DNA of 64,000 bases from an uncultured bacterium (lineage in GTDB: Bacteria > Krumholzibacteriota > Krumholzibacteriia > Krumholzibacteriales > Krumholzibacteriaceae): assembly GCA_963813815.1 (NCBI GenBank), contig CAWFAD010000008.1, forward strand, positions 1 through 64,000, given 5' to 3'. The notes beneath the pieces are model-generated. The model was not told the DNA's origin. It made no database searches and saw nothing but the letters and a program-made list of their open reading frames with translations. The translations under genes and the position numbers were made by a program. The first letter of the stretch is position 1. The number at the start of each line of letters is the position of its first letter. Below, piece by piece: positions 39,098-58,153 of the stretch.

Positions 39098-39455
39098 GGG
39101 GGCGAATGGATTCGACGGGGATGGAAGAGGCAAGGGGAGCGTGCCGAGGCGCCATCAACCTCGTAAATCAGGTGGCACAACACAACTGCCGACAACCAGT
39201 TGGCACTGGCTGCCTAGTACATAGGCAACCCGTCCGCTCCGTCTGCGCAGGCAGGGGCGGAACCCGGGCGTCGATTACTGCCGGCTAGCGTGAATCTTTG
39301 CTCAGGAGATTCACGCGAAACAAACATGAGCTAGTCTCTCGGATCTTCTGCCTGTCGAGGCTCCCCGGGACGAAACAAACTCGATAGGACACGCACGTAG
39401 CAGCCCCTCGCGGAAACATCTTCGGACGCGGGTTCGATTCCCGCCGCCTCCACCA
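39098..39455 (+). ncRNA. ssrA: tmRNA; tag peptide (A)ADNQLALAA* at 39188-39217
   Basis: 5' GGGGGCG..GGATTCGAC pairs with 3' CGCCTCC-ACCA including the G3.U pair; T-arm GGACGCGGGTTCGATTCCCGC; tag ends LAA-stop. Confidence 0.97.
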
Positions 39456-39493
39456 TTATCAAGTTGGCACGCCACGCGCGGCGCCTCGGAAAT

Positions 39494-40672
39494 CTAGTGA
39501 AGTGTCCCCTCCAGCAGAAGATCGTCGACGTTTGTTGATTCGAGAAGTCTGAGCCCCTTCTCGCGGTCGACGACGAGCGGCATACAGCCGGGATAGCGCA
39601 GCTTGAATTGTTCCAACCCCCGAAGAGTTCTCGAAGCGCTCGACTTTGCCTCGATCGCGTATATCTTCCCTCTCAGCTCAACGACAAAGTCGACCTCGAA
39701 CTTCCCTTCTCGCCAGTAATGAACCCTTCCGCTGGAACGCAACAACGCCGCGCCGACGGCCGCCTCGAAAATCCGGCCATACCACTGAGGATTTGCGTCG
39801 ACCTCTTCGGGCGATCGGAAGGCATGTACCAGAGCGTTGTTCAGCGGCAAGAGTTTCGGGCTGGAAGCCCGCGTCCTCACTTCCGAGCCGCTGTATTTGT
39901 GAAGTGTGCGAATGAGGAATGCCCCCTGCAACAGATCCAGGTAGTGCTTGATCGTGTTCACATTCCCGGTTTCCTGAAGTTGGCCCAGGAGTTTCTGGAG
40001 TGACACCTCCTGGGCTGGATATGCCATCGCAAGCTCGAACATCTGGCGGAAGAGCGCCGGCTTCTGGACTGAACTGAGGCCCAGTATGTCTTTGATGAGC
40101 ACGGGTTCAATAATCGAGTCCCGCAGATACTTCTGCCATCTCGGAACGTCGTGACACAACGATGCGGCTGCCGGATATCCGCCGAACTTCAGGAACTCGT
40201 CGAGTCCCCATCCAAAAGCCTCCCTGCACTCGCCGAGATTCCAATGATCGGCAGTGATGACCTCGTATCTCCCGGCCAAGCTTTCACCGAGTCCCCGCTG
40301 AAGGGACAGGCTGGCTGATCCCAACAAGACGACTTTGAGTCTCTTGGACTCGCGGTCCTGATCGAACATGTGCTTGATAACCGAGCTCCAGTGGGGAATC
40401 TTCTGAACTTCATCGATCACGAGAAGGACGCCATCGCCCATTCGCCTGGCCCTTTCCCAATGCGCCGTGAGCCACTCCCTGTCGGGAGTAACGATCTCAT
40501 CCGCCGTGACCATAAGCGAGGGGCCCTCCCAACGTGCGATAATTTGCTGGAGCCCCGTGGTTTTACCGACTTGCCTCGGGCCGATGACCACCTGGATGAA
40601 ATTGAGCTGCTCGCGCAGCCGGGATGCCAATAGTCGAGTGAAATGCCGTTCAATTTCCTTCATAGTGGCCAT
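39494..40672 (-). CDS. AAA+ ATPase with DUF4143 and a C-terminal PD-(D/E)xK-like domain
   Basis: GPRQVGKTT, IDEVQ, LGSA, ESLAGR, GGYP, EVDFVV..AIEAK. Confidence 0.9.
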   Translation of the reverse strand: MATMKEIERHFTRLLASRLREQLNFIQVVIGPRQVGKTTGLQQIIARWEGPSLMVTADEIVTPDREWLTAHWERARRMGDGVLLVIDEVQKIPHWSSVIKHMFDQDRESKRLKVVLLGSASLSLQRGLGESLAGRYEVITADHWNLGECREAFGWGLDEFLKFGGYPAAASLCHDVPRWQKYLRDSIIEPVLIKDILGLSSVQKPALFRQMFELAMAYPAQEVSLQKLLGQLQETGNVNTIKHYLDLLQGAFLIRTLHKYSGSEVRTRASSPKLLPLNNALVHAFRSPEEVDANPQWYGRIFEAAVGAALLRSSGRVHYWREGKFEVDFVVELRGKIYAIEAKSSASRTLRGLEQFKLRYPGCMPLVVDREKGLRLLESTNVDDLLLEGTLH

Positions 40673-40819
40673 AGCATATTCATTTTTGGTAGATTTGTCT
40701 AGTATATTTAGGAGAATAATCTACTAAACTTTGAATTATGCCGCAACAAATTGTTATTATATGAGTTATATAATTAGCACTTCTACGGAAAGCGGGCAAA
40801 AACAGGGGTGTCCCTCCGC

Positions 40820-40841
40820 TTCTTTGCAACAGTGTCCACCA
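40820..40841 (+). repeat. att-like repeat R1
   Basis: TTCTTTGCAACAGTGTCCACCA, 19/22 identical to R2. Confidence 0.7.
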
Positions 40842-40908
40842 TTTTCGAGCATAAGCTTCGATTTCCATGCAACAATGTACACTGTATATCGCATGGCTGG
40901 ACGACAAC

Positions 40909-41235
40909 TCACGAGACGAACCGGAAGGCCCCGAACCAGACGACAAACATGAATCCGAGCACGCAGAGAAATCCGAAGGCTATCAAAGCCGCGATTATCA
41001 CGGTGCGCCGGAACATGAGTCGCTTTGCTTCCATGTAGGTTTCCATTGCATCCTCCTTGTTGAGCGGTACAGGCGCATCTCCCGTCGTTTCCATCTTTGC
41101 GAACTCCTTGGCAAGGTCGGCGGTTTCGGGGTCACTCGCCAGGTACGATTCGACAAGCGCGCGCGTATCCGCGCTCGCCTCGTTGGCCACATAGATGGGT
41201 AGAAGATCGAGAATCACGTTTCGAGTGATCTTCAT
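40909..41235 (-). CDS. Anti-sigma factor-like membrane protein
   Basis: NVILDLLPIYVANEASADTRALVESYL (zf-HC2-like, metal ligands absent); C-terminal TM; follows the ECF sigma. Confidence 0.8.
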   Translation of the reverse strand: MKITRNVILDLLPIYVANEASADTRALVESYLASDPETADLAKEFAKMETTGDAPVPLNKEDAMETYMEAKRLMFRRTVIIAALIAFGFLCVLGFMFVVWFGAFRFVS

Positions 41236-41236
41236 T

Positions 41237-41722
41237 TCAATACACCTTCCTTTCGATACAGGCCGCAAGGATCATCTTGCGAACGCGATGCACTTTCACT
41301 TTGGCTGATGCGAGTGTGATTTCCAAGACGCGGGCGATCTCCTCGTAAGGCATATCATGCCGCACGCGCAGGACAAAGGCCGCACGATCGATCTCCGGAA
41401 GCGTTCGCAGGAGCCTCTCAACTCTTACCAGCTCGAGCCGGGATTCGGCTCGATCTTCCGGTCCGGCCGCGGGATCCGGCAGCGTCTCATCGAGAGCGAT
41501 CTCGCGCCGGCTCTTGCGCCGCCGTTCAAGAAACGTGTTGCGAGCGATCGTCATGAGATATGCCTTGAGGGTTTCCGTGCGAATGGCGCTTCTCTTCACC
41601 CATGCGCGAACGAACGTTTCGGAAGTGATGTCCTCCGCTTCGGCGCGCTCGCCCGCAAGCGAGAAAGCGAAGCGGTAAACCTCCGGGGCGTAGGACTCGT
41701 ATAGTTCTTGAAAGCGCAGCAT
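41237..41722 (-). CDS. ECF sigma factor
   Basis: AEDITSETFVRAW, YLMTIARN, YEEIARVL..AKVKVHR; RBS GGAGG. Confidence 0.9.
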   Translation of the reverse strand: MLRFQELYESYAPEVYRFAFSLAGERAEAEDITSETFVRAWVKRSAIRTETLKAYLMTIARNTFLERRRKSRREIALDETLPDPAAGPEDRAESRLELVRVERLLRTLPEIDRAAFVLRVRHDMPYEEIARVLEITLASAKVKVHRVRKMILAACIERKVY

Positions 41723-41856
41723 TTTTCTCCTCCGGTGATAATAGACATTTGGAGATGGAAAGTTACAAACAAATGGATGTGACATGAGGAGGGATGCGCT
41801 CACTCCGGAGCCGAGCGACAGAGATGGGGTACGGTACGATAGCGTGCAGGTGGCGT

Positions 41857-41878
41857 TTCTTTGCGAGCGTGTCCACCA
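41857..41878 (+). repeat. att-like repeat R2
   Basis: TTCTTTGCGAGCGTGTCCACCA, 21/22 identical to R3. Confidence 0.8.
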
Positions 41879-41904
41879 ATTCAAATCAGACGACAACGTC
41901 AGGC

Positions 41905-42756
41905 CTACGGCCGAATCCCGGCTGATTCTCGAAAGATCGTTCGCGATACCAGCTCGGTTGCACAAGCAGTCAGCGCGAATATCGCGAGAATGATCAGGTA
42001 GATCTGCAGGGCGCTCAGGTCTCCAAAATCCCACCAGTTGTCGCGCATAAGATTCACCGCCGATGTATTCAGCACGGCATGAAAAAACATCGCTATGAAC
42101 AAACTGCCATTGCTCCATCGCCAGAGGTGACCCATGATAAATGCGATGAGAATCGTAGATATCGGATATAGCACGACAAATTGCGACCAGCTCAATCCAT
42201 TGCGGAAATCCGCAAACCTGAATGCGGGGAAATGCCAACACGCCCAAACGAGGCCGACTATGATTGCCCTGGTCACTGATCTCAAGCGGTCCTGCAAACG
42301 AGATTGGAGAAAACCGCGCCAACCCATCTCCTCTCCCAACGGGCCTACTCCGAAAATAATCCCGCCCAGAAATGCATTCACCGGCACGAGTGCGATCATG
42401 GTAGCGGCGATTTTCCATAGGGCGATTTTGGCCGAAATCCCCAGAACGAGATAGAATACCAGTCCGATGGCGGGCAGCAGAAAGAAGGCAGCAATATAAA
42501 CACGCCAGTTTACCTTTACGAGAATCAAGCGCTTCAGCAGACCGAGGACAGCCGCGCGCCCGCCGGTTAGGCCAGTCATAATAAGCGCAGCTGCGGTCGG
42601 GCCAAAGCTGCCTGCCAGAAGAAATCCCGCAAATCTCCCGTCGTTGATACCGACCATTCCATTAATCGATGCTATGCCCATCAACCAGATCGCCCACGAA
42701 ATAGCGTAGGCAACAGCCACAAAAGCCAAGATGGACTTGATCCCTCGATCCTTCAT
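41905..42756 (-). CDS. CPBP (Abi/CAAX) intramembrane metalloprotease
   Basis: EEMGWRG, WACWH, HAVLN. Confidence 0.9.
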   Translation of the reverse strand: MKDRGIKSILAFVAVAYAISWAIWLMGIASINGMVGINDGRFAGFLLAGSFGPTAAALIMTGLTGGRAAVLGLLKRLILVKVNWRVYIAAFFLLPAIGLVFYLVLGISAKIALWKIAATMIALVPVNAFLGGIIFGVGPLGEEMGWRGFLQSRLQDRLRSVTRAIIVGLVWACWHFPAFRFADFRNGLSWSQFVVLYPISTILIAFIMGHLWRWSNGSLFIAMFFHAVLNTSAVNLMRDNWWDFGDLSALQIYLIILAIFALTACATELVSRTIFRESAGIRP

Positions 42757-42927
42757 TGAGGGCCTCCTCAATCAAGGCGGCATCCGGCCCGTAGGAGAGT
42801 ATCATCGCCGAGTGAAGTAAGGCATACCTGGACTGCGTGCATCAATACGGCACAGCGGCGCAGTTGTTTCCAGAAAAGAGCCCGCCTGGATTCGGTCTTG
42901 CATTCCAGCAGTACGTGCGGCGGTCAC

Positions 42928-43149
42928 TCAGTATCTGTCGAGTGCCCAGTTCAGCGCCTTCGCGACAGTCTTTCCCTTAACACCGATATGCCGGGCAATA
43001 GCCTCGTTACTGAGCGCCAACCGTTTCAAATGCAACGCCTTTCCCGCGATCTGCTGATATTTTGGAGGGATCTCGACCTCCAGAAGTTCCGCTTCGAATG
43101 TCATCTCCGCAAAGGTTCGAATTCTTTGCGGGCGTGTCCACCATTTCAA
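42928..43149 (-). pseudogene. HTH-containing ORF fragment that starts inside repeat R3
   Basis: KWWTRPQRIRTFAE..PPKYQQIA..LSNEAIARHIGVKGKTVAKAL; no clear RBS. Confidence 0.6.
43109..43143 (+). repeat. att-like repeat R3 (most complete copy)
   Basis: GCAAAGGTTCGAATTCTTTGCGGGCGTGTCCACCA. Confidence 0.85.
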
Positions 43150-43164
43150 CTCAATTGTGTCGGA

Positions 43165-43653
43165 TCATTCTTCGCAGACCGATTTCGAGCGTTTGCGACC
43201 CTTAATGGTCTTCAGCGCATCGGTGAGGACCTTCAGGACGAGCCTGTCTTTCTCCCTTGCCGCCGCTTCCTTGCTGGCAATGATCCGCTCCAGCTTCAGA
43301 ACGAGCACTTTTGTCCGACCGAGAGGCACCTTGATCGCATGTTTCCTTTCCTCGTCGAATTCGCCCAGTCCGTCCATAGTGAGAACGATATCGAAGAGCT
43401 CGATGCCATTGCCGGCGAACATTGGCCCATTCCTCGCCGTCGGAGGAACGTAAACGCCACGAACCTCTTTCAGGGCTTTTTCAAGGCCGGGATCCGGCAG
43501 CGTGCGAAACCACAGGTCGATACCCTGAGTCACAACGGGCGCTCCCTGAAGGGCGGCGGCGGAAAGCCCCACGATCATGAACTCGACTTTCTGGCGAACG
43601 AGCTCCTTCAGAAACTCCGCTTCCCGATCACCGAATATCAACGAATCGGCCAC
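43165..43653 (-). CDS. Nucleotidyltransferase-fold protein (DUF6036-like)
   Basis: MIVGLSAAALQG..TQGIDLWF..IIASKEAAAREKD. Confidence 0.75.
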   Translation of the reverse strand: MADSLIFGDREAEFLKELVRQKVEFMIVGLSAAALQGAPVVTQGIDLWFRTLPDPGLEKALKEVRGVYVPPTARNGPMFAGNGIELFDIVLTMDGLGEFDEERKHAIKVPLGRTKVLVLKLERIIASKEAAAREKDRLVLKVLTDALKTIKGRKRSKSVCEE

Positions 43654-43996
43654 GACGCAACGCCCTCCTCAAACGCTCGACAGGCTTCTCACTCAAGAGA
43701 AGCAGTGTATGCCTGATATTGTCTCGATCGATCCCTGGATGCAGCCTCGAGATGCGTTCCGATTCGGTGGCCAGGGATTTCATCCGTTCGGCCGGCGTAT
43801 CCGTTTCTTCGAGCAGGGCCGATACGGATATATGCAGGCGCTCCGCAATAAGGATCAGGGATAACGGGACGACGTAATCCTTGCGAGCCAGCGAATAGAA
43901 CGCATTTCGACTGACCCCCGCTTCACGCAGCATCTCTCCGATGTTCAGGCCCCTCCGGCGGCATTCGTATTCGACCTTATCCATGGAAAGCTTCAT
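43628..43996 (-). CDS. XRE-like HTH protein, partner of the nucleotidyltransferase
   Basis: EMLREAGVSRNAFYSL..IAERLHISVSALL; overlaps the downstream gene. Confidence 0.7.
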   Translation of the reverse strand: MKLSMDKVEYECRRRGLNIGEMLREAGVSRNAFYSLARKDYVVPLSLILIAERLHISVSALLEETDTPAERMKSLATESERISRLHPGIDRDNIRHTLLLLSEKPVERLRRALRRGRFVDIR

Positions 43997-44002
43997 ATAC
44001 AT

Positions 44003-44031
44003 AATGTACCACTATTTGGTACACTTGTCAA
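44003..44031 (-). promoter_or_regulatory. sigma70 promoter with palindromic operator; probably leaderless
   Basis: TTGACA-17bp-TACATT, 6 nt before the ATG at 43996; TGTACCA-N5-TGGTACA at 44005-44023. Confidence 0.75.
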
Positions 44032-44060
44032 CCGAGAATAGGCCCTTGTGTGACGTTATT

Positions 44061-44162
44061 CTAACCGTTGGGTCGATGCTCGACACGCCGGAGCCAGGCA
44101 GCAGCTTTAGTCGCCGTCTTGTCTGTGATTCCGAGCCTCCTGGCGATCGCCGAGTCGGGCAT
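44061..44162 (-). pseudogene. Second, truncated copy of the HTH fragment
   Basis: MPDSAIARRLGITDKTATKAAAW is similar to LSNEAIARHIGVKGKTVAKALNW. Confidence 0.6.
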
Positions 44163-44167
44163 AGTCT

Positions 44168-44944
44168 CTATTCGCCAAAAAGAGTTTCCGGCCGCTGCTC
44201 CATCAATTCTCTCATTGCCGCCAAGAAACGCCCGGCATACGCACCGTCCAGCGGACGATGATCGAAGATCAGGGTGGCAGAAATGAATTGCCTGAAAACA
44301 CACTGCCCCGCCGCATTCCGAACAGCCTTCTCCTGCAGGGCCCCCAGGCACAGCACGGCGATCATCGGCATCGACATTGCCGGAACACCGTTGGTGACGC
44401 CGAAGCTGCCGAGATTCGTGATGACAAAATTGCCATAACGCTTTTGAAGAAAATCTATCGATCGTGACGGGAACCTCATGGCGAGCTTCCGAATAAAGGC
44501 CGGGATGCGCATAAAGCGTTTCAGATAGAGATAGAATTCCCCTTCATCCCGCTGAATTCTTTCGACCTGCCCTCTGCTTTCCTTGACAATCTCATCCAGC
44601 CTTTTCTTGTCGGGGTTGTGCAGTACGACGTACTCCACATGGTTCTCGCTGTCGACCGGAATATTGAAGACCATCTCTTTGGCATCGACGATTTTCTTCC
44701 CATCGAACGAGGCGTAGAGAAACGGAAAATGCAGCAAGGTCTTCGCGGATGCTTTCATGAAAAGATGGGTAAGCGATATTCTGAGGGAAGCCTCACGTTT
44801 GGCATTTGCTTCGCTCCGAAGCGCCAGAAGCCTGTCCATCTCGATATCGATCGCCATCGAAACCGCCGGAACGCGTCGATTCTTGTCGAATTTCATAATT
44901 TGAAATCTTCGAAAGAGCCGCTCTTTCTCTTCCCGTTGCACCAT
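44168..44944 (-). CDS. Stand-alone 2-oxoacid dehydrogenase E2-type acyltransferase catalytic domain
   Basis: GNFVITNLGSFG, FDHRPLDG; no lipoyl domain. Confidence 0.8.
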   Translation of the reverse strand: MVQREEKERLFRRFQIMKFDKNRRVPAVSMAIDIEMDRLLALRSEANAKREASLRISLTHLFMKASAKTLLHFPFLYASFDGKKIVDAKEMVFNIPVDSENHVEYVVLHNPDKKRLDEIVKESRGQVERIQRDEGEFYLYLKRFMRIPAFIRKLAMRFPSRSIDFLQKRYGNFVITNLGSFGVTNGVPAMSMPMIAVLCLGALQEKAVRNAAGQCVFRQFISATLIFDHRPLDGAYAGRFLAAMRELMEQRPETLFGE

Positions 44945-45042
44945 ACGTGTTTCTCTCTTTCGTGGAGCGATACTGATGAAAGTCAATCTTATGGGCAATT
45001 CGATTCCGTGTCAAGGTGCCGGCGGGTTGTGCACGCGCCCCC

Positions 45043-46837
45043 CTATTTCCCTTCCTCCAACCGCTTCAGGGCGGCTTGGCCGTTCTTGTTCCCCGGATTG
45101 AGCTCGAGAGATTTTCGGTACCCTTCGATCGCGCGCTCCTTCTGCCCCACCTTCGCGAGGACCTCCCCGAGGCTGTCGTAGGCATTCCAGGAATTTGGAT
45201 AGAGCTCGACGGTCTTTTCGAACACGTAGACGGCGGCCGCGATCTCGTTCTCCTGAAGCAGCCGGTACCCGAGGTTGTTGAAGTCGGCTTCTTCGAACAC
45301 CGGGCCGTCTTTCCCGCGCCGCGCGAGGAGCTCCCGCAGCTTTGCATCGGCGGCCGGGATTCCTCCCTCGGCGAGGGACTTTCCGAGAGTGTCCGCGGCG
45401 GACCCGAGCCTTTGCTTGCGAACCGCCGTTTTCGCCCGTTCGATCTGCGGCTGCTCCCAGGGGAACATCGCCTCGACCTTTTCGCTTTCCTTCAGGATTT
45501 TCTCCGCTGCGGCGACGTCGCCGACGCCGAGATACGCCTGGGCCAGCATGGAGTAAGTGCTGGCGAATTGTGGGAAATCCTCGCGGCATGCGCGCAGAAG
45601 ACCGATCGCTTCGGCGTACTGCTTGCTCCCCAAGTATTGAGTGGCCCGTTGCATTGCTTCGTCGACGCCGAAGAAGGACGCGTCGCCTCTCTTCGCGCGC
45701 GCTCCATTGAGACCGGCGACCGCCGCCTCGACGCCCTTCTCACCCGCGTCGCGCACGTACTCTTCCACAAGGGATGTCCTCAGGTTCAACAGGCTGGCGG
45801 ATTCGTCCTGCGGGACGGGATTCCCTTTCTCCAGAAGCTGCAGCGCGAATTCCAGAACGCGGTCGGTCCCTGAGGCGATGTCGGCCGGCGTGTTCAGCAT
45901 GCGCAGATCGGGAGGCACGCCGACTCCTTCCCAGGAAACGCCGTTGTAATCGCTCATCACCTTGAAGGCCACCCACAGGGTCCAGCCATTCGGCATCCGA
46001 TCCGGGTATTGCGCCGAGAAGGCGCCCTCGGTGAGATCCCCCACGACGGTGACGTGGGGAAGCACGCGCATGGCCAGCACGAAGACATCGGCGCCGCTCG
46101 CGCTGAGGCGATGCGCGAGAAGGACGCTGGGCCGCGTGAACTGGACTGGACCGCCGGGCTCGACGTTGCGGTACTCCACCGGGGCCAGATCGTCGTGCTT
46201 GGGACCGTAGCGGGTCTGCGTTCGCATATAGTGTCGCTTGCGGTCGGCGAACCGATTCGCCACGAGCTCCGCCACGTTCCCCGTTCCACCCGGGTTGCCG
46301 CGCACGTCGACGATCATCCCCCGAGCGCCGGCGAGCTCCGCGATCGCCATGTCGATCGCCTGACTCGTCGGCCCGGGTCCCGCTTTGAAGTCGCCGAAAT
46401 GCATGTACCCGATCCCGTCCGAGAGCCAGCCGTAGGTGAAGCGACCCTTCAAGGTATCGGTGGCGCCGCCCTTCAAGTATTTCGACTTCACGAGATCCAG
46501 GGAGAAGTCGTCGGGCTCGCGGGCCTCCATCAATCCGCCGCAGTCGCGCCGCGTCCCGTCGGACAGGCAAACGTGCGCGTCGTTCAGGTTCCGCAGCATG
46601 GAGAGCAGTATGCCCCACAGCTCCTCGTCGGTGGTCGCCGGGGTGACCTGCGGGCGGTATACCTTGTACAGGGCATCCCAGTCGACGTGCTTGACACCGA
46701 ACTGGGCGTAGTTTCTATCGAGGCTCTTCCATACGTACTCGAAATTCAATACGGGATCGCGGGGATTTGCGCTCCCCTCGATTCTCGGCAACGGCGGCCG
46801 ACGCCCAAAGGCAAGCGGCGGCAAAGACAATCCACAT
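45043..46837 (-). CDS. S41-family peptidase with C-terminal TPRs; signal peptide out of frame (indel near 46785)
   Basis: LNDAHV, IVDVRGNPGG, SASGADVF, EGVGVPPD; TPR NAYDSLGE..LELNP; MWIVFAAACLWASAAVA lies in another frame. Confidence 0.85.
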
Positions 46838-46932
46838 GACGTGCCATGATCGATAGCTCCTTTCCGTATGCTCCCCAATCTTGTCAACACTCGAATGATA
46901 CGAGAACGGAATGGAAGTTGTTGCCCGGAATA

Positions 46933-46967
46933 GCGAAGGTTCGAATTCCTCGCGAGCGTGTCCGCCA
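46933..46967 (+). repeat. att-like repeat R4, distal boundary of the array
   Basis: GCGAAGGTTCGAATTCCTCGCGAGCGTGTCCGCCA, 30/35 identical to R3. Confidence 0.85.
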
Positions 46968-47103: not shown

Positions 47104-47517
47104 ATGAGGCGGATCGTCATTCTCGCCGCAGCGGCGCTGATCCTCTCCGCCGGCTGCACGAAGATAGACTATGTGGGCAAGGAGTTCCCGCCCACGGCCG
47201 ACGTGGATATCTTTTTCGCGCTCGACGACGTCGACCGCGAGTACGAGGTGATGGGTCACCTGACAGCCACCGCCAACGATATAGTGAGCGCGGAGAAGAT
47301 GCAGGAGGAGATACTGAAAAAGGCCCGCGAGAAGGGCGCCGACGCTGTCGTCATCCTCGGGCTCAACCGATTCGAGACTCCCACGCCGGCGACCTGGTCC
47401 GAGACGACGGAAATAGAAGCGACCAAGGCAGGAACGAAGACCACAACGACGGGGACTTCGTCATCCGGCACGAGCGAGCAAAAGGAGATACGCGCGACCT
47501 TTCTCAAGTACCGCTGA
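47104..47517 (+). CDS. Lipoprotein of unknown function
   Basis: Lipobox LSAGC; KKAREKGADAVVI; RBS AAGGAGG. Confidence 0.8.
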   Translation: MRRIVILAAAALILSAGCTKIDYVGKEFPPTADVDIFFALDDVDREYEVMGHLTATANDIVSAEKMQEEILKKAREKGADAVVILGLNRFETPTPATWSETTEIEATKAGTKTTTTGTSSSGTSEQKEIRATFLKYR

Positions 47518-49645: not shown

Positions 49646-49981
49646 ACACCGGAGCTCCTGATGCGCGGCGAATCCCGCACGATCATCGAGGCGTCAGGGG
49701 TAAGCAGTATGCCCGCTCTGCTCGGCCGTGTCAAGGTGGGCACTGGTCGGGGTCGTGGGCGACTGCATCCAAAATCGCCGCCTCAATCGGGATTTCCGCT
49801 TGACCTTCCCCCACTACACTCCTCCACACAAAGGGTCAATTGCGGGACATCTCTCTAACCGCCGGTCGATGCCCGAGCCGCGAGGCGCTCCTCTAACCCG
49901 AACAAGCGGGGGTTGCACCCCGCCCGATTATGGATTAAACTGTTAGGTAATTGCTATCATTGAAAACTTCGGGAGGTTCCC

Positions 49982-51145
49982 ATGATTATCGCCAAACGCA
50001 AGCGGTTGGCGTTGATAACCGCGGCCGTATTCGTCGTCCTGATTGTGAGCGGCATCGTCGGGTTCCGCGTGGCCGTCAGGGCTCTGAAGGGTAAGGTCGT
50101 GGAGGCCCTGGGGCCGAACAGCGAGATCAGGGACATTCGGTTGGGCTGGTCCAGCGTGAACATCGAGGGGTTGAGGATCAAGGGACCGAGCTGGTGGCCT
50201 GATGCCGAAGTGTTGCAGGCGGAGCGCGTGGCCGTTGTCCCCAGCCTGCGCAGCCTTTTCTCCCGGCAATACCGGGTCCGCTCCATCACTATCGTCAAGC
50301 CCTATGTTTCGGCACTCCGAACCAAGGAAGGGAAATTGCTGATTCTCCCCGGTCTGCTGACAAAGGAGGCCGACGAAGGCCAAGCGGATACCCTCTCGCG
50401 CCCCGCCGCTGCCTACTCGACAGTATCCATCGGCCGTATCACTCTCAAGGATGGGATCGTGGAACTGTACGATGCCACGGTGACCCAGCCTCCGTTGAAG
50501 ATCCGGCTCGAGCAGATCAAGGCCACCATGCGGAACATGGCCGTACCGGGGCTCAAAGGGAAGAGCCGTTTCGAACTCGCGGGCGTCGTAAAGGGCGCCC
50601 AGCGGGACGGGCAGATCAAAATGGCGGGGTGGGTCGAGGTGGGCACCAGGAACTCCTCGGTGAAGACGGAGCTCCGGTCCGTGGACCTCGTGGTGCTCCA
50701 GCCCTATCTCATCAAGGCCGGCGAGAAGGGCGTTCAGAAGGGCACCTTCGACCTCGATCTGCAATCGGACGTGAGCAATAACCAGCTGAAAGCTCCCGGG
50801 AAGGCCACGATCTCGGATATGGAGCTCGTCCAGGCCGAGGGCGGCTTCGACACGTTCATGGGTCTTCCCCGTCGGGCCGTGTTGGCCTTCCTGTTGCGCA
50901 ATGAAAATAGGATCACGGTGGATTTTGTCCTGGAAGGGGACATCAATAGTCCCGAGTTCTCCCTCAACCAGACCTTCACCACGCGGTTGGCGTTCGCAAT
51001 GGCGAAGGTCCTTGGGCTCGACTTCAGCGGAATTGTGCAAGGCGTGGGTACGCTGGGACAAAAGGGCGGGGAAGCGGTGGGCCAGGCGGCGAAGAGCACG
51101 GGGGGCTGGCTGCAACGGCTTTTCGGGGGCAAGAAGAAGCCTTAG
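49982..51145 (+). CDS. DUF748/AsmA-like protein
   Basis: N-terminal anchor, beta-taco-like repeats, DFVLEGDINSPEFS. Confidence 0.75.
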   Translation: MIIAKRKRLALITAAVFVVLIVSGIVGFRVAVRALKGKVVEALGPNSEIRDIRLGWSSVNIEGLRIKGPSWWPDAEVLQAERVAVVPSLRSLFSRQYRVRSITIVKPYVSALRTKEGKLLILPGLLTKEADEGQADTLSRPAAAYSTVSIGRITLKDGIVELYDATVTQPPLKIRLEQIKATMRNMAVPGLKGKSRFELAGVVKGAQRDGQIKMAGWVEVGTRNSSVKTELRSVDLVVLQPYLIKAGEKGVQKGTFDLDLQSDVSNNQLKAPGKATISDMELVQAEGGFDTFMGLPRRAVLAFLLRNENRITVDFVLEGDINSPEFSLNQTFTTRLAFAMAKVLGLDFSGIVQGVGTLGQKGGEAVGQAAKSTGGWLQRLFGGKKKP

Positions 51146-51161
51146 GCTATTGAGGCCTGCA

Positions 51162-51818
51162 ATGGCAAAGATTCTAATCCTGCTGATTGAAGACAACCGC
51201 TTTCTGCGGGAAGGCATCGCCGCCATGCTCAATAGTGAGAACGATATCGAAGTCGTCGCGCGAGCCGAAGACGGCGATGCGGTGCGTGAGCTGAAGAGCA
51301 TGAAAAAGCCCCCTGACATCATCCTCTTGGATCTTGGGCTGGAAAAGGAAAACAGCCTGAGACTGATGAACATGTTGCAGGAAGAAGCGCCGTCGGCGCG
51401 GATCATCGCCATGGATATATTCCCTGAGCAGATCGACATCGTCGAGTTCGTGAAATCCGGCGGCAGCGGCTTCATCCTCAAGAATGCCCCGTCGAAAGAT
51501 TACATTAAGACCATCAGGACCGTCGCGGCAGGTTCAAAGGTGCTTCCGCCGGCTTTGACCAATTCGCTTTTCACACAGATCATCGAATCCGCGCTCAAAA
51601 CAGGCAACGGCATCCCCAACAGCTCAATAGTTTTGACCAATCGTGAACGAGAGGTTATCGCCCTGATTTCCGAAGGCATGAGCAACAAAGAAATCGCCGA
51701 GCGGCTTCATGTCGCTACATATACCGTAAAGAGCCATATACACAATGTTCTGGAAAAGCTGTCGCTTCACACCCGGCTGCAAATAGCGGCCTTCGTCCGC
51801 AGGGAAGAATCCGAATGA
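51162..51818 (+). CDS. NarL/LuxR-family response regulator
   Basis: IEDNRFLREG, ILLDLGL, LTNREREV..GMSNKEIA..TVKSHIHN. Confidence 0.92.
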   Translation: MAKILILLIEDNRFLREGIAAMLNSENDIEVVARAEDGDAVRELKSMKKPPDIILLDLGLEKENSLRLMNMLQEEAPSARIIAMDIFPEQIDIVEFVKSGGSGFILKNAPSKDYIKTIRTVAAGSKVLPPALTNSLFTQIIESALKTGNGIPNSSIVLTNREREVIALISEGMSNKEIAERLHVATYTVKSHIHNVLEKLSLHTRLQIAAFVRREESE

Positions 51819-51856
51819 CCGAATTCGGATCTTGATTTCCCATAAAGCGATACATT

Positions 51857-51881
51857 GGACTAGCTCCGGAGGACTAGCTCC
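51857..51881. promoter_or_regulatory. Direct repeat, candidate NarL-type binding site
   Basis: GGACTAGCTCC-GGA-GGACTAGCTCC, containing CTAG-N10-CTAG. Confidence 0.5.
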
Positions 51882-52036
51882 TTTTCCATCCCTTGGAGCG
51901 ATTCACTCGCTGAGGGTTCCCGAGTACACTTCCTTCAAAGAACACTACACCGGACAATATTCCGAAAGGAGCGTTGATGCATTGCTGCGGAGCGGGTAAC
52001 CATTCAGCTCGGTTTCACGCCACGAAAGGGGCAGAT

Positions 52037-52471
52037 ATGTTCAAGCGAACGTCATTACTAGTTGTCGTCATGATGTGTGCCCTTGCTCATGCCGGACTGG
52101 CGGCAGAACAGGACAATGTTCAGAAATACTTCAACGACGCTGCGTGCAAAGTGAAGGCGGCGACCGATCCGTCGCAGAAGCGCGAGATTCTCGAAAACAA
52201 GATCGAGGATATGTCCAAGGCGTTGGGCATGGTTCGGAACTCGCGACTCGTTTCGCAAGCCGATCGCGCGGGCCTTGATCGTCTCGGCGCCTCCCTTCAG
52301 GAGAAACGGGACGAGCTCGCGGGTACGAACGGCTACGCGCGCGTTGCCGATGATCAACTCAACGCGTTCTCCGAATACGTCGTGCAGGACATGGAGCAGG
52401 CAGACAGGACGATAACCCTCAGCGTCGTCACGGCGCTCTTGATCATAATCATCATAATCCTTGTCGCCTGA
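52037..52471 (+). CDS. Secreted protein with a hydrophobic C-terminal anchor
   Basis: Signal peptide; helical core; ends VVTALLIIIIIILVA. Confidence 0.75.
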   Translation: MFKRTSLLVVVMMCALAHAGLAAEQDNVQKYFNDAACKVKAATDPSQKREILENKIEDMSKALGMVRNSRLVSQADRAGLDRLGASLQEKRDELAGTNGYARVADDQLNAFSEYVVQDMEQADRTITLSVVTALLIIIIIILVA

Positions 52472-52505
52472 TCTCTCTCTTCCGCGAGGATTTCGTGTGT
52501 TTGGT

Positions 52506-53627
52506 ATGAATGGCTTGTCCAATGGATTTTCTGCGAGCGCCCCACAGGCACAATCGACGCCCGTGGCGCGTTTCGCCTGTGTGGCGCTCACTTTGTTTCT
52601 CTTTTCGTGCAGCTCCGTTCCTCCTGCCCGCCGCGCGGCTTCGCCGGCAGATTATGGCGGGCTCCCCCCGCGCTACTCGATCGTATGCATCATTCATGGC
52701 GATGGCAACTATCTCTATCATGATGCCCGTGGCGACGCGCTCAGCGCGGATGAGGTGACTCTCGCAAAAGCGATAACAGTCGCGGAACGCAACGCGCAGG
52801 CAGAGATGTTCATTTTTCATGAAAGACGCAGAAACAATCTCTTGCTGTTCTTTCCTCGTCGCGACGGAACGTTTTATTACTACCGGAACGGCTTCCTCCT
52901 CGCCGAGGAATCGTACTGGCGGGATCAGGGAGCATTGCGTTTCGATCCTGAAATGGAGCTTTATAACCGCTTCCGCGCGGAGGGCTCACCTGATCCGATG
53001 AGATTATTCCTGTATTTCGGTCATGAAATCCCCGAGCTCGGCGGAGCCGGTTACGATGCGTCGTACAAGAGCCGAACGTTCAGCGTGGACGACCTCGCGG
53101 ACGGATTGAAACGCGTCGCCCGCGATTCCACGAAGATCGATCTCGTCGTGCTTTCTGCATGTTTCAGCGGCACGCCGCGCACGCTGGCCGCGATTGCTCC
53201 CTACGCGCGATACGTCATCGCTTCTCCCGACAATCTTCACCTCTCATACTTCGATCTCCGCCCCTTGGAGCAATTGGATATCGGCCTGCGGGGGGAAGAC
53301 GTGTCCGAATTTGCCGATGCATTCGCTCGCCATGCGTTCGACAGGCTGACGGAGGATACACAGACAGCGGTCAGCGTTGTCGTATACGATGTGGATCGCG
53401 TTCGCGGATTCGTGCGCTCCGTGGACAGTGTCTACGATCATGCCATGGCCACATTGAAGGGGAAACCACCGGCATCCATCGAGCGCTGCGATTGCGCGGA
53501 TGATCCCGCATATATGATGCCGGGGCTCAATGAGGGAATAACTGTGCTCTATCGCGCGCCACGTTTTGGACGCTTGCAGCACAAACAAAGCCATTCGGGA
53601 TGGGAATGTTGGAGGCTTGTGAATTGA
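52506..53627 (+). CDS. Probable lipoprotein, clostripain/caspase-fold peptidase-like
   Basis: LFLFSC lipobox-like; LYFGHE and VVLSACF (His-Cys dyad pattern), YVIASP. Confidence 0.55.
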   Translation: MNGLSNGFSASAPQAQSTPVARFACVALTLFLFSCSSVPPARRAASPADYGGLPPRYSIVCIIHGDGNYLYHDARGDALSADEVTLAKAITVAERNAQAEMFIFHERRRNNLLLFFPRRDGTFYYYRNGFLLAEESYWRDQGALRFDPEMELYNRFRAEGSPDPMRLFLYFGHEIPELGGAGYDASYKSRTFSVDDLADGLKRVARDSTKIDLVVLSACFSGTPRTLAAIAPYARYVIASPDNLHLSYFDLRPLEQLDIGLRGEDVSEFADAFARHAFDRLTEDTQTAVSVVVYDVDRVRGFVRSVDSVYDHAMATLKGKPPASIERCDCADDPAYMMPGLNEGITVLYRAPRFGRLQHKQSHSGWECWRLVN

Positions 53628-53641
53628 TCGAGCGCGGAAGT

Positions 53642-54361
53642 ATGCGGAACGTGAAACTGACAACACACTATTATGTCCTTTCCCTGAGCGAGCACACCAG
53701 CAGGCTCTACGAAGCATTCCGGGACACGCTTATTGATATTCAAAACAAGGAGTTCCCGATTGAATCATCGGAGGTTCCGCGCGGGCCCATCGATACGGCG
53801 CCCAACAACGGTGGATTGCCGAAATTCATCCGCACGACGGACCAGCACTTTGACCACTATTTCGGACAGGATCCGCTTCGATTGGTTGTGGTCGGCGAAA
53901 GCAAATACCTGTCCATCTTCGGGTCCGTGACATCGCATCAAGACGCGTTGATTGGCGTGGTTGAAGGCGACCATACTGCAACTTCTCCGCACGATTTGGG
54001 CAAAATCGTATGGCCAATCGTCAAGGAGGTTATAGCGGGCACACGTAAAAACGCGATGCACGACTTGGAAGCGGCAGAAAACTCGCGGAACGTCGTTTCC
54101 GGAATCGATGCGGTGGCACATTCGGCGGGCTCGGGGAAAGGCGACACCTTGTATGTCGAGGAAGATTATCATATAAAGGGCGGCATTCGCGAAACGGATC
54201 ATTCGCTTATTCGGCCAAAGGATTTAGATATACAAGAGGCAATCGATGACGCCGTGGATGCCATTATCGCAAAGGTGCTGGAAGAGGGTGGAAATGTAAT
54301 ATTTCTGACAAGCGGTTCGCTGGCAAGGCTCCAGAGAATCGCTCTCGTTCTAGGTGGCTGA
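53642..54361 (+). CDS. baeRF3-like release factor family protein, apparently N-terminally short
   Basis: YYVLSLSEHTSRLYE, PLRLVVVG, TLYVEEDY, DDAVDAIIAKVLEEGGNV, RIALVL. Confidence 0.65.
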   Translation: MRNVKLTTHYYVLSLSEHTSRLYEAFRDTLIDIQNKEFPIESSEVPRGPIDTAPNNGGLPKFIRTTDQHFDHYFGQDPLRLVVVGESKYLSIFGSVTSHQDALIGVVEGDHTATSPHDLGKIVWPIVKEVIAGTRKNAMHDLEAAENSRNVVSGIDAVAHSAGSGKGDTLYVEEDYHIKGGIRETDHSLIRPKDLDIQEAIDDAVDAIIAKVLEEGGNVIFLTSGSLARLQRIALVLGG

Positions 54362-54405
54362 TTGCCCATTCGCAACGAGGATATCGATAGGGAGGTGACG
54401 CAGAA

Positions 54406-54552
54406 ATGCTTTGGACTATAGGAATCATTCTATTAATTCTCTGGCTACTCGGGTTGATCACCGCGCACACGTTCGGCGGGGTCATTCACGCTCTCCTGGT
54501 CATCGCGCTCGTGGTGATTATCATCCGTGTCCTTCAAGGTCGGCGCCTGTAG
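54406..54552 (+). CDS. lmo0937-family small membrane protein (not in the ORF track)
   Basis: MLWTIGIILLILWLLGLITAHTFGGVIHALLVIALVVIIIRVLQGRRL*; RBS GGAGG. Confidence 0.85.
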   Translation: MLWTIGIILLILWLLGLITAHTFGGVIHALLVIALVVIIIRVLQGRRL

Positions 54553-54599
54553 CGCATCCGAGATACTCTTGGAGAGGAGATAATATCTTGTGCAAGAAC

Positions 54600-55139
54600 A
54601 TGAAGAAAGTGTCGCTGATGCTGGGGCTGGCCGCATTGATGGCCACCCAGGTGCACGCACAGAGCATAGGCATCGGCCCGCAGGTCGGCTATTTTCGAGC
54701 CAAGGATGCCGATGAGGGCAATTTTACGGGTGGAGCGGCCCTTCGGCTGAAAATGACTCCGTTTCTCGGCGTCGAGGCGTCCATCGGCTATCGTCAGGAA
54801 CAATATGCGGATGACCTCTTGACGGTTCGCAGCTGGCCGGTGATGATAACTGGTTTGATTTATCCGCTCCCCATAATCTACGGGGCCATGGGCTTCGGCT
54901 GGTACAACACAACGTTCGATTATGACCAGGTCAGCCTGCCGCTTCTCAAAGATGATACGGTGCAGAAAGTCGGCTGGCATTTCGGCGGCGGCATGGAACT
55001 GCCCATCGGAACAAAGATCAAGCTGACGACCGACATTCGCTATGTCTTCCTGGATTACGATTTTGAGGAAGTCCCGGGCAGCGGTGACATGAGCAGCAAT
55101 TTCTATGTTATCACCGCCGGAATACTATTCGCTTTATAA
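54600..55139 (+). CDS. OmpA-like outer-membrane beta-barrel protein
   Basis: Signal peptide; GWHFGGGME; terminal strand ITAGILFAL. Confidence 0.82.
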   Translation: MKKVSLMLGLAALMATQVHAQSIGIGPQVGYFRAKDADEGNFTGGAALRLKMTPFLGVEASIGYRQEQYADDLLTVRSWPVMITGLIYPLPIIYGAMGFGWYNTTFDYDQVSLPLLKDDTVQKVGWHFGGGMELPIGTKIKLTTDIRYVFLDYDFEEVPGSGDMSSNFYVITAGILFAL

Positions 55140-55161
55140 TATCTATTCAGGAGGACATGAT

Positions 55162-55280
55162 ATGAGGACTTCTCGGATCGCTCTTGCGACACATTCGACC
55201 TGGTCGCCGAGGTCGGTATCGGGATCAACGACGACTCGTTTACCTCTGTGGGCGCTGGCATCACGTATTACGTCCATTGA
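55162..55280 (+). pseudogene. Internally deleted outer-membrane protein remnant
   Basis: RBS plus MRTSRIALAT, joined out of frame to FDLVAEVGIGINDDSFTSVGAGITYYVH*. Confidence 0.45.
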
Positions 55281-55300
55281 TAGCGAGAGGAGATGATTCA

Positions 55301-55522
55301 ATGAGTGGAGCAAAGATCCTGGCACTCGTGTTGATCGTGGCCGGCATCATCGGTCTCATGTATGGCAAGTTCGGCTGCGCCAAGGAGACCCACAAAGCCG
55401 ACCTGGGCTCGATTCAGCTTTCGGTTAAGGAAGAGCGCTCCGTCAACATCCCCCTCTGGGCTGGCGTTGGGATGATAGCGGTCGGGGGTGTTCTTCTGAT
55501 TGTGCCGCGCAAGAAGAGCTAG
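55301..55522 (+). CDS. Small two-TM protein
   Basis: LIVAGIIGLMYG..KETHKADLG..VNIPLWAG. Confidence 0.75.
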   Translation: MSGAKILALVLIVAGIIGLMYGKFGCAKETHKADLGSIQLSVKEERSVNIPLWAGVGMIAVGGVLLIVPRKKS

Positions 55523-55687
55523 TTCTTGCTGTTAGTGCCAAATGGGGGAACTCTCTTGCATATTAGGCGCGATCGTTGACGCGATTTCAATCAGCTGCTA
55601 CCACGCAGGGAACCAGCCGCAGTGGCCGACCCAGGACGCGTGGAGCCCGGTTCGGGCATCGCCCGTAACACGTAGGAGGTAAGACGA

Positions 55688-56047
55688 ATGAGATGGAACG
55701 CACTGCTCTTGGCTATCATCGCGGGTGTTTTCGCTTTCACGGTCCAATCTTGTGCCGTTGGATACCAAGGCCCGCCGCGTGCGGCAGCGCACGGTTACGT
55801 CGTGGTCCACCAGGAAAGGGAACTCGTTTTCGACTCGACGCTCGGATTGTATATCGTCACTGGCTACCCCAGCTTGTACTACTATGGGGGGTACTACTAC
55901 CGCGTGTACAGCGGAGGTCGTTTTGCGAGGTGCAGGACGATCAGCGGGGCCTGGAAATCGATCAGCCCTTCGAGATTGCCGCCGGGTCTCGCGAAGAAGT
56001 ACGGCGCGCACCCGGGCAAGCATCGCGGCAAGAGGCACAACAACTAA
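55688..56047 (+). CDS. Small lipoprotein with a PPGLAKK motif
   Basis: VQSC lipobox; LPPGLAKK; RBS AGGAGG. Confidence 0.75.
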   Translation: MRWNALLLAIIAGVFAFTVQSCAVGYQGPPRAAAHGYVVVHQERELVFDSTLGLYIVTGYPSLYYYGGYYYRVYSGGRFARCRTISGAWKSISPSRLPPGLAKKYGAHPGKHRGKRHNN

Positions 56048-56208
56048 CCCACCGCGCAGGCAACTTCGCCGTGCCGGCCTGCGTTCGTCGTGCGTGAAGA
56101 CGCCCGTCGCGCTGGGACGATCTGTGATCCGCTAATCGCCCAGTGTGACGGGCTCTTCGATTGTTGGAAGAGAAACGTAAGCTTCCCCGTCAAGTAGACA
56201 ACGCCAAA

Positions 56209-58153
56209 GTGGACACTCGGCGAGAACCGCGAGTCCTCCCAGATGCACGTCGTGACCCGATGGGACGATGAAATTCAGACCCTGATCGCTCGAAATAGAT
56301 ACCACCCGGAGTATGGAAACCGGGTCGCCTTCGCGGCCATCAGCCCGCCGGCGGATTCGTACAACGGCGACCGCACCTCCTTCCTGGGGCGCAATCGCTC
56401 GATGCGCAATCCTGCGGCAATGGAGCGAGTGAAGCTTTCCCGACGGACGGGAGCGGGATTCGACCCATGCGCCGCGCTGCAGGTCAAGATTGAACTGGCG
56501 CCCGGCGGGCGAGCCGATGTCACGTGCATGCTGGGCCAAGCCGAGTCGATTGATGAGGTGCACGAGCTGGTTCGAACCTACCGGGAAAGCTCGGCTCTCG
56601 AAGACGCTCTCAACAAAACGAAAAGCTGGTGGGACGATCTGCTGGGCGCGATCGAGGTGCATACCCCCGAGCTCGCGGCGGATTTCCTCGTGAACCGCTG
56701 GCTGCTGTACCGGGACCTCAGCTGCCGGATCTGGGGGCGCACGGCTTTCTACCAATCGGGCGGCGCGTTCGGATTCCGCGACCAATTGCAGGACATCACG
56801 GCCTTCGTCTATGCGTATCCCGAGCCGGCGCGGGAGCACATCCTGCTCGCGGCGAGCCGCCAGTTCAAGGAAGGCGATGTCCAGCACTGGTGGCATCCGC
56901 CGAACGGCGCGGGAATCCGTTCGCGGATCTCCGATGATCTCCTGTGGCTTCCATACGCTGTCGCGCACTACGTCAGGATCACCGGCGATGTGGACATCCT
57001 GCACGCGACGGTTCCGTTCCTCAATGCTCCCGTGCTCGAAGACGGTCAACGCGAATTCCTCTCCACGCCTGAGATCGCGCGGGAACGCGCCACGCTGTTT
57101 GAGCACTGCCAGCGCGCGGTCGCGCGCGGCCTGACTTTCGGGCCCACAGGGCTGCCCCTGATGGGAACGGGCGACTGGAACGACGGGATGAACCTCGTGG
57201 GTGCCGGGGGCAAAGGGCAGAGCATTTGGCTGGCGTGGTTCCTGGCGGATGTGCTTCAGGGCATGGCCGAGATGTCCGACTTGCTCAATCGACCGATTCT
57301 GAGCCTTACCTTCCGGCAAGACAGGAAGGCGTTGATTCAGCGTGTCGAAGAGGTTGCGTGGGACGGGCAATGGTATCTTCGGGCGATTTTCGACGACGGC
57401 ACGCCGCTCGGTTTCTCGGCGAACAAGGAAGCGAGCATCGATTCTCTGCCACAATCCTGGGCCTGGCTGAGCGGCGCCGCCGACGCAGATCGCGCCGGCA
57501 AAGCCCTGGAATCGGCGTGGACGCATCTCGTTCGCGAGGATGAAGGTTTGGTGCTGCTCCTCGAGCCTCCTTTCGACATTTCAGAGCCCTCCCCCGGCTA
57601 CATCAAGGGATACCCACCCGGGGTGCGTGAGAATGGAGGCCAATACACTCACGCCGCCCTGTGGCTCGCCATGGCGATGGCGCGTCGCGGAGACGGCGAG
57701 CGGGCGGCCAAGATTCTGCGCCTGCTCAATCCTATCGAGCAGGCACGCGATCCCGAATCGGTCTGGCGCTATGGAATCGAGCCCTATGTGATCGCCGCCG
57801 ACGTGTACCGGTTGCCCGGGCGAATCGGCCACGGAGGCTGGTCGTGGTATACCGGTGCGGCCGCGTGGATGTACCGGGCCTGGATTGAGGAAGTCCTGGG
57901 TTTGCAGGTGCGGGGGGATCGCATGCAGTTGAACCCGGTCATTCCCGGATGGTGGGACGGCTTCAGCCTGCGCTATCGTCACGGCGAAGCGATATACGAG
58001 ATCAAGGTCGAGAACCCGGAAGGGCGCCAGGGAGGCGTGTCATGGGTGGAGATGGATGGTCAGCGCTTGCCGGGCGGAGTGATTCCTCTGGACAAGGCCC
58101 TCGTGAAGCATCGTATACTCATACGTATGGGGGAGCCGCAGCAGGCGGTCTAG
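56209..58153 (+). pseudogene. 5'-truncated GH94 glucan phosphorylase domain (C-terminal part of an NdvB/Cgs-like cyclic beta-1,2-glucan synthase)
   Basis: YQSGGAFGFRDQLQD, GDVQHWWHP, GDWNDGMN, GVRENGGQYTH, WYTGAAAW; homology starts abruptly at WTLGENRE, upstream of the first ATG (56243). Confidence 0.75.

Follow-up and report, generated by a model that had tools for sequence, protein, structure and literature searches.

What kind of mobile system has lined up small, recombinase-less gene units behind the transfer-messenger RNA (tmRNA) gene ssrA in an uncultured member of the Krumholzibacteriaceae? The locus lies in a window of 64,000 nucleotides (contig CAWFAD010000008.1 of assembly GCA_963813815.1, positions 1 to 64,000), for which a preliminary description, made from the letters alone, had proposed an integron-like cassette array delimited by attachment (att) sites of the serine-recombinase style. 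Our analysis indicates that the region is probably an accretion array formed at ssrA by a family of large serine recombinases (LSRs), with later loss of the LSR gene and travel of the remaining units in the company of a visiting element. The anchor is the tmRNA gene at 39098-39455 on the plus strand (ARAGORN; tag ADNQLALAA), and it is followed on the same strand by four repeats, R1 (40820-40841), R2 (41857-41878), R3 (43109-43143) and R4 (46933-46967). These are the top repeat family of the 38.5-48.5 kb interval in a repeat finder, which bears out their reported positions, and their pairwise identities (R3/R4 30/35, R2/R3 21/22, R1/R2 19/22) are as first stated. They bound units 1 to 4 of 1386, 1037, 1265 and 3824 bp, in agreement with the earlier figures of about 1.4, 1.0, 1.3 and 3.8 kb. 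The G+C content is 0.47-0.57 across 39.5-45 kb, compared with about 0.65 genome-wide.

The repeat motif is confined to this locus. When the 35-mer of R3 was compared with the 2.53-Mb genome, the matches with 0, 5 and 9 mismatches all lay at the ssrA locus and the next match had 12; an att profile gave R1-R4 24-52 bits against at most 17 elsewhere in the genome, with R1-R4 being among the seeds of that profile. Both scans rule out a motif scattered genome-wide. The claim that the repeats end in the 3' core of ssrA holds for the last seven bases, and nothing beyond these copies ssrA: the identity between ssrA and the repeats is 11-14/22, the shared stretch is confined to those seven bases and the remainder is element DNA. 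Repeats as copies of the ssrA end are therefore ruled out beyond 7 bp. Within the window, cores and left arms persist, complete at R3 and R4 and short at R1 and R2. R3 has a complete attP left arm (43114-43136) and core and resembles an attR site, R4 has the left arm with a variant core but no recombinase tail and is the last recognisable site, R2 is a shortened left arm with core, and R1 is similarly shortened, with its outer motif gone. The shortened R1 end also occurs in a relative, G005, and a more decayed version of it in another, G003 (loci, genomes, contigs of the source genome and database proteins are numbered L, G, C and P, respectively; the source genome is G000).

The architecture of these sites can be followed in the relatives. 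Where two elements meet, the sites are palindromic: 23 of 25 bases in locus L042 of G003, and 20 of 25 at L025 and L031, mirror each other about a TC dinucleotide; the corresponding symmetry at R1-R4 is 8-10/25. We read the palindromic junction of L042, about 46 bp centred on TC, as the putative attP of the element. Judged by this comparison, R1-R4 are left half-sites of the predicted attP of an ssrA-targeting LSR. The ssrA target half-site spans 39430-39455 on the plus strand and consists of a B arm (39430-39448), the TC crossover that symmetry predicts at 39449-39450 and the common core up to 39455. A GTTCG motif starts 17 bp to the left of TC in ssrA and 22 bp to the left in the element arm, a shift of 5 bp, and PMC3783163 describes a 5-bp shift of the outer motif between serine integrase attB and attP. 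Both the inverted half-sites and the 5-bp attP/attB shift are seen for left arms only. At three loci (L018, L043 and L047, in G003, G015 and G013) a mini-unit of about 48 bp ends in a hybrid of ssrA arm and att core, and the cores that precede such mini-units end in CAATT instead of CACCA.

The proposal that these are serine-recombinase att sites linked to ssrA is supported by the locus-confined motif and by LSR open reading frames (ORFs) that reach the core. In L042, a minus-strand LSR gene reads through the att core into a downstream tail, and the anticipated recombinase ORF running into the core thus exists in this locus as well as among database homologs. A homolog search with the G003 LSR gave 467 proteins among 7999 scored candidates; among the 120 listed, 108 end in a peptide antisense to tmRNA or tRNA, which this C-terminal pattern cannot tell apart, two in the tail and 10 otherwise. 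The homolog P0002 (615 aa, 94% identical to the G003 LSR) carries resolvase, recombinase and zinc-ribbon domains, all above the Pfam cut-offs, and its C-terminal peptide is identical at 49/56 positions to the antisense frame of the window's ssrA; P0002 therefore sits at the ssrA of a close relative. Its best NCBIfam match is CcrB, at 113 bits against a cut-off of 900. The cognate LSR was not found in the source genome, which is 91% complete, and at present the array there appears to be without its enzyme. The one LSR resident in the genome, at C16:313102-314614 beside tRNA-Asn, was rejected as the cognate enzyme: it carries a frameshift, shares 23% identity with P0002 over 248 aa and goes with other repeats. 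Viral contigs held no P0002 relative and no match to the motif, and the P0002 matches in plasmids and phages are only 27-30% identical, so a phage or plasmid vehicle is not supported by these searches. The att arm of the ssrA family was also seen in a Desulfomonilaceae record (L005), which suggests that the element family crosses phyla.

An attP inside the LSR gene implies that integration severs about 70 codons, which are left at the far end of the element. Such a fragment lies directly at R3: a 71-codon helix-turn-helix (HTH) tail at 42928-43143 on the minus strand, the 3' end of a recombinase gene cut at the att core, which continues the LSR ORF in frame in L042, P0012 and P0126. The statement that no unit encodes a recombinase hence stands for the body of the enzyme, 0 aa of which is found in the four units, and needs amending for unit 3, which holds this gene tail. 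The structural model of the tail has three helices with a predicted local distance difference test score (pLDDT) >90 over residues 31-70. Weak HTH_23 matches occur in three homologs, and a fold search gave no match at E <=0.001, its top rows being mostly HTH DNA-binding domains. With a filter for intact tails, 19 of 42 att sites retain one. The median ratio of nonsynonymous to synonymous substitution rates (dN/dS) is 0.23 (113 usable of 171 pairs), a value biased downward by the choice of open frames and drawn from non-independent pairs, and third positions are the most variable. The tail is a defined HTH under purifying selection. A profile search for longer tail homologs found 28 proteins, where the first search had found one, and 10 of these join an LSR C-terminus (P0001 and P0012 among them). 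P0141, a tyrosine integrase (PF00589), also ends in this HTH tail, which may reflect chance read-through. A second, cut recombinase tail lies inside unit 4 at about 44064-44162; this stub (about 44061-44162 as a minus-strand feature) matches an LSR tail at 67% over 33 aa in tblastn and is longer in G005. Unit 4 probably fuses three blocks, and deletion of the att site of the second tail has joined unit 4a to the block that follows.

With attP inside the 3' end of the LSR gene, insertion at the last bases of ssrA places the LSR body beside ssrA, while the HTH tail and the left attP arm come to lie at the opposite, far end; R1-R4 are far ends of this kind. We propose that the array was built in this way by an ssrA-specific LSR of about 570-620 aa. 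A newcomer would enter at ssrA whatever follows the core, pushing older units outward, and the LSR gene would usually be deleted later, leaving cis-mobilizable units of 1-7 kb. Such units may move by joint excision with a visiting LSR element that is subsequently lost, and excision of single units in trans may contribute.

The arrays of relatives bear on how the units move. Related loci were found by a pattern scan together with a search using the small ORF that crosses R3. The att motif occurs in 18 of 208 genomes of the phylum and in 14 of 42 other family members, and a reversed control gave 0 matches. We considered 27 bounded units, four of them from the window (L004 was dropped as a duplicate of L042, spacers <100 bp were dropped and 20 later loci were uncounted); they are 1.0-7.5 kb long, with a median of 2.3 kb. 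A copy of unit 1 extends from the core to the far end with 93% identity in L042 (G003), and another in L038 (G005) is 90% identical; in G003 the copy lies directly outward of an LSR-bearing unit, which is the arrangement needed for cis-mobilization. The ECF pair of unit 2 has an 89% copy ending at an att site in L040 (G013). The CPBP gene of unit 3 stands directly behind ssrA in L015 (G009, 90%) and has other neighbours in L006 (97%), while the HTH-nucleotidyltransferase (NTase) pair of unit 4a has a 96% copy behind an att core in the second position of L038. The acyltransferase of unit 4b has no copy in the 42 other family genomes. Past R4, the next gene has an 85% copy between two att sites in G002 (L075), and in G013 the DNA upstream of this gene follows ssrA and a right attP arm. 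The identity of the units (89-96%) compares with 69-76% for the main matches upstream of ssrA in the same genomes and with 77-80% for long matches in a conserved rpoA/ribosomal-type block, a label that is our reading rather than the result of a scan (G009 gave no match there); accessory DNA beyond R4 is mostly 78-85% identical. The end of ssrA is near-identical among the relatives examined. The occurrence of the units in other positions, at higher identity than core DNA, indicates that they travel and reorder.

Gene order across the repeats, on which the preliminary description had suggested a comparison, does differ between relatives. Unit 1 and the HTH-NTase pair are in inverted order in G000 and G005, the site between them in G005 having been lost through a short-homology deletion, and two other units are inverted between G067 and G021. 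In sequencing run X1, one contig that differs from unit 1 at 10 positions in 784 bases has a tail and an att arm before this unit in place of ssrA; in X5, a single contig joins an att core to the end of the acyltransferase gene (41878 to 44161), its shorter side being 22 letters long. Still other orders are suggested by joints in X2, X3 and X5, each represented by a single contig whose one side is short and whose middle is unknown. Rearrangements of this kind would also be produced by a true cassette system, in which the LSR would need no more than one good half-site (the arm of ssrA or the left one of attP) and the core, and single units would be excised, reinserted and shuffled in trans, both ways, much as cassettes are by an integron integrase. 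We regard such a system as possible yet doubtful here. It would account for the right arms of the 72 sites, which are very diverse past a T-rich start, for the identical two ends of unit 1 in G000 and G003, for the order inversions and for the X1 and X5 joints, which connect unit ends in other orders; moreover, the palindromic junctions within arrays show that an occupied ssrA still accepts a newcomer. However, the contig joints are single and short-sided with unknown middle parts, no circles were seen among the contigs, and the outer binding motif is missing from R1 and R2. In addition, several junctions are plain deletions off the core (for example, the cut tail at 44162 and a join at microhomology in G005), and the cognate LSR, which most relatives have only in broken form, was not found here. 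It is tempting to speculate further that the array is a serine counterpart of the integron, in which a widespread LSR reads one arm plus the TC core, would capture genes lying between the ends of elements and would shuffle recombinase-less cassettes of 1-4 kb in trans and between species, with the tail, connected to the enzyme only on the circle or when another unit precedes, acting as a switch of activity or direction; we consider this rather doubtful.

The opposite explanation is that the units are dead remnants: larger islands would have been trimmed to their outer cargo and would now be fixed, with sharing between species due to inheritance or ordinary homologous exchange through alike tails and ssrA ends. 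The predominance of LSR pseudogenes, the decayed right arms, the cut tails (23 of 42 sites are without a full tail) and the presence of cargo outside arrays all fit this explanation, and the tails, 78-90% alike over about 220 bp, would be sufficient for homologous exchange. On the other hand, descent by deletion alone cannot invert the order of units, the units are more alike between species than the conserved core block, and units 1 and 2 have no tail here through which to recombine, which together make purely passive remnants unlikely. The probabilities that we attach to accretion, to trans shuffling and to dead remnants overlap, since accretion concerns the origin of the array, and trans shuffling and dead remnants its remaining mobility.

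Several observations weigh against accretion with units that travel in the company of a visiting element. The right arms in the window agree with the right attP arm at only 3-6/12 outer bases, in the range of chance, whereas that arm is retained (10-12/12 outer bases) at 10 of 72 sites, in some units of relatives. With right arms at chance level and R1 and R2 without the outer motif, circles of the units would not form a canonical attP. That 26 of the 27 bounded units hold <100 aa of LSR, i.e., no LSR body, is a count biased to short units, as loci were limited to <=20 kb and mostly fragmented assemblies hide long LSR islands. Within the taxonomic order, five of 52 genomes have a copy of the LSR family; four of these copies are visibly broken and the fifth runs off its contig. 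Cargo also occurs without att sites (the HTH-NTase pair, the ECF pair and the S41 gene), the first of these at 88-91% in G003 and G008, and high identity therefore does not require the att route. The CPBP gene in G009 and G007 lacks a far site, the ECF pair in G013 lacks a near site, and some att arrays are not beside ssrA in the assemblies of relatives. Finally, none of the contig data, which come from four sequencing runs and in which the absence of circles is not demonstrable, showed excision, a circle or enzyme activity. Taken together, the decayed right arms, att-free cargo and missing far sites give the units the appearance of having been assembled by capture and deletion between element ends. 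The alternative posed at the outset, between cassettes stacked in trans and trimmed islands, is thus answered in part: the units look trimmed or captured, as judged by cut tails and att-free cargo, and have moved between species as units, whereas trans action is unproven.

Among the arrays located away from the tmRNA gene, those of four congeners (L039, L042, L043 and L044) follow a gene for a prolyl oligopeptidase in loci that lack a tmRNA, and this points to either a rearrangement between att sites or a second target.

The original comparison with integrons deserves separate consideration. Integrons hold arrays of small gene units that lack a recombinase and are reordered between genomes; the tyrosine recombinase IntI is encoded beside the array, attC is an imperfect inverted repeat with a GTTRRRY core, and one promoter drives co-oriented, mostly promoterless cassettes. 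The present array shares the small units without a recombinase of their own and their reordering between genomes. In the window, the one- or two-gene units are also co-oriented, and the distances from the last stop codon to a core (38, 67, 26 and 21 bp) were confirmed on remeasurement; such short gaps would, however, be expected equally from trimming to a gene end. The differences lie in serine instead of tyrosine chemistry, the absence of a resident integrase, att half-sites of the double-strand type, cargo that in relatives is not uniformly oriented, and promoter-like sequence belonging to the cargo itself. The first gene is on the minus strand in 17 of the 27 units, and 30 of 48 cargo genes called by a rough gene caller are on that strand, so the all-minus layout of the window is not a rule. 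Three cargo blocks in the window are preceded by promoter-like sequence of their own. A promoter built across each att site, in the manner of an integron Pc, is not supported: there is one match, at R3, and both boxes reach >=4/6 at only 13 of 42 att sites. The analogy with attC is not supported, as the sites are LSR half-sites and the cargo is not co-oriented as a rule. That this is a bona fide attC array which has lost its integrase is extremely improbable given that the repeat is one half of an LSR attP with the LSR gene attached in relatives, that the junction has no GTTRRRY core, that co-orientation is not general across the units of the family, and that the sole tyrosine recombinase match (PF00589) lies on another contig, C11, with none in the array. 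The array is not an integron; it is a compact variant of a system known from Dehalococcoides.

The comparisons that follow rest on the accessible parts of the publications cited. In Dehalococcoides, tandem islands at ssrA carry a reverse-strand LSR, DsiB, that overlaps attL and has its stop codon outside the island, and 15 of 31 islands lack the integration module and were proposed to be cis-mobilizable (PMC3146451). Here, similarly, tandem repeat-bounded units stand behind ssrA, with a common part of 7 bp, and the LSR of relatives and database homologs, not found in the source genome, is on the reverse strand and overlaps attL. The DsiB islands have a 20-bp ssrA repeat with insertion in the T-loop, whereas 7 bp are shared here and the crossover would fall in the acceptor stem. 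They carry a six-gene module (DsiA, a RecF-like protein, ParB, Mom and others), none of which was seen beside the LSR of L042, a truncated copy in the only bounded unit that bears an LSR. The accessible description notes no duplicate islands within a strain, whereas 1-7 kb units recur here between species in other positions, and the 3' fragment here is a defined HTH (PMC3146451). In cis-mobilizable elements (CIMEs) and tandem accretion, integration genes are likewise lost while att sites are kept, and newcomers at the target gene's end form tandems that move together; the examples given are larger composites of integrative and conjugative or integrative and mobilizable elements, the detailed one with tyrosine integrases, and no Pfam match to transfer genes was obtained in the window (PMC5704250). 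The composites of the staphylococcal cassette chromosome (SCC) are formed at rlmH by CcrAB or CcrC and resemble the array in their LSR, in degenerate inverted half-sites about a dinucleotide at the 3' end of a gene, in internal att sites and in att-bounded elements without ccr. Their target is rlmH instead of ssrA and their dinucleotide GA instead of TC, P0002 falls below the CcrB cut-off, and an att site inside the recombinase gene is not mentioned for Ccr in the accessible text (PMC13739063). The tycheposon islands of Prochlorococcus share successive integration at tRNA or tmRNA genes, older elements lying outward, partial repeats and remnants; there, 910 of 937 recombinases are tyrosine recombinases, many elements have replication genes, and the repeats are partial tRNA copies (bioRxiv 10.1101/2020.12.28.424599). 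A literature search, mostly of openly accessible papers, found no description of the attP or tail of this LSR family or of such arrays in the phylum. The position of the crossover, the small units, their reuse between species and the defined HTH tail set the array apart from the known cases.

The array shows how species of an uncultured lineage exchange small accessory genes at a single safe site, and with P0002 it supplies a concrete enzyme, together with an attP, an attB and a crossover, all open to testing. According to PMC3146451, the Dehalococcoides integrase was suggested to be complete only on the circle or beside the 3' fragment of another island; the defined HTH tail makes the question raised there, of an att site inside an integrase gene as a regulator, a testable one. 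One-arm recognition, if true, would break with the strict directionality (attP x attB) that model serine integrases show, and would provide a means of inserting DNA repeatedly at the ssrA end.

All cargo of units 1-4 is on the minus strand. Unit 1 encodes an ATPase with AAA_14 and DUF4143 domains (39494-40672), which matches the PADLOC candidate defence model PDC-S01 at 461 bits, and unit 2 an ECF sigma factor (41237-41722) with a probable membrane anti-sigma (40909-41235). Unit 3 carries a CPBP (Rce1-like) membrane protease (41905-42756). In unit 4, block 4a consists of a nucleotidyltransferase-like gene (43165-43653) and a small putative HTH gene (43628-44002), block 4b of a stand-alone E2-like acyltransferase with the 2-oxoacid_dh catalytic domain (44168-44944, the start being uncertain between 44944 and 44998), and block 4c of an S41 peptidase with Tricorn C1 and TPR domains (45043-46848), whose 5' end is possibly frameshifted. 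The earlier labels are confirmed by Pfam for the DUF4143, ECF sigma, CPBP, acyltransferase and S41 genes; the anti-sigma and the HTH gene have no Pfam or NCBIfam match, and the nucleotidyltransferase is supported by Atlas neighbours alone (AbiEii, DUF6036 and NTP_transf families). One base is missing at each of 46781 and 46839 in the X1 and X5 contigs, and the signal-peptide region of the window's S41 gene may be frameshifted, unless the assembly is in error there. Past R4, a small lipoprotein-like gene (47104-47517, plus strand) is possibly a further unit whose far site is lost; the reported flip of orientation after R4 applies to this one gene, and the following gene is already on the minus strand. 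The units of relatives carry peptidases, serine hydrolases and kinases as well, and DUF4143/AAA_14 ATPases, of several distinct types, are the commonest cargo (L016, L031, L033, L038, L041, L042, L059 and the window).

Lower G+C (mostly 0.50-0.61) extends well beyond R4, at 49900-57000 of the window, and the stretch 56208-57000, which recurs on C16 at 88% identity and again in many relatives, is insertion-sequence-like. On contig C11, possible repeats of tRNA ends were seen 3.5-3.6 kb behind tRNA-Pro(ggg) and tRNA-Gly(ccc), although the tRNA-Pro repeat may simply be a neighbouring tRNA-Pro gene. A second array of the same genome lies behind tRNA-Asn (L059, C16:313041-330767); there, an LSR with a single frameshift runs into the end of the tRNA gene and is accompanied by a Rep-like gene (PF23343) and a DUF4143 ATPase, and the tRNA end is repeated four times downstream, at 317029, 318443, 326515 and 330767.

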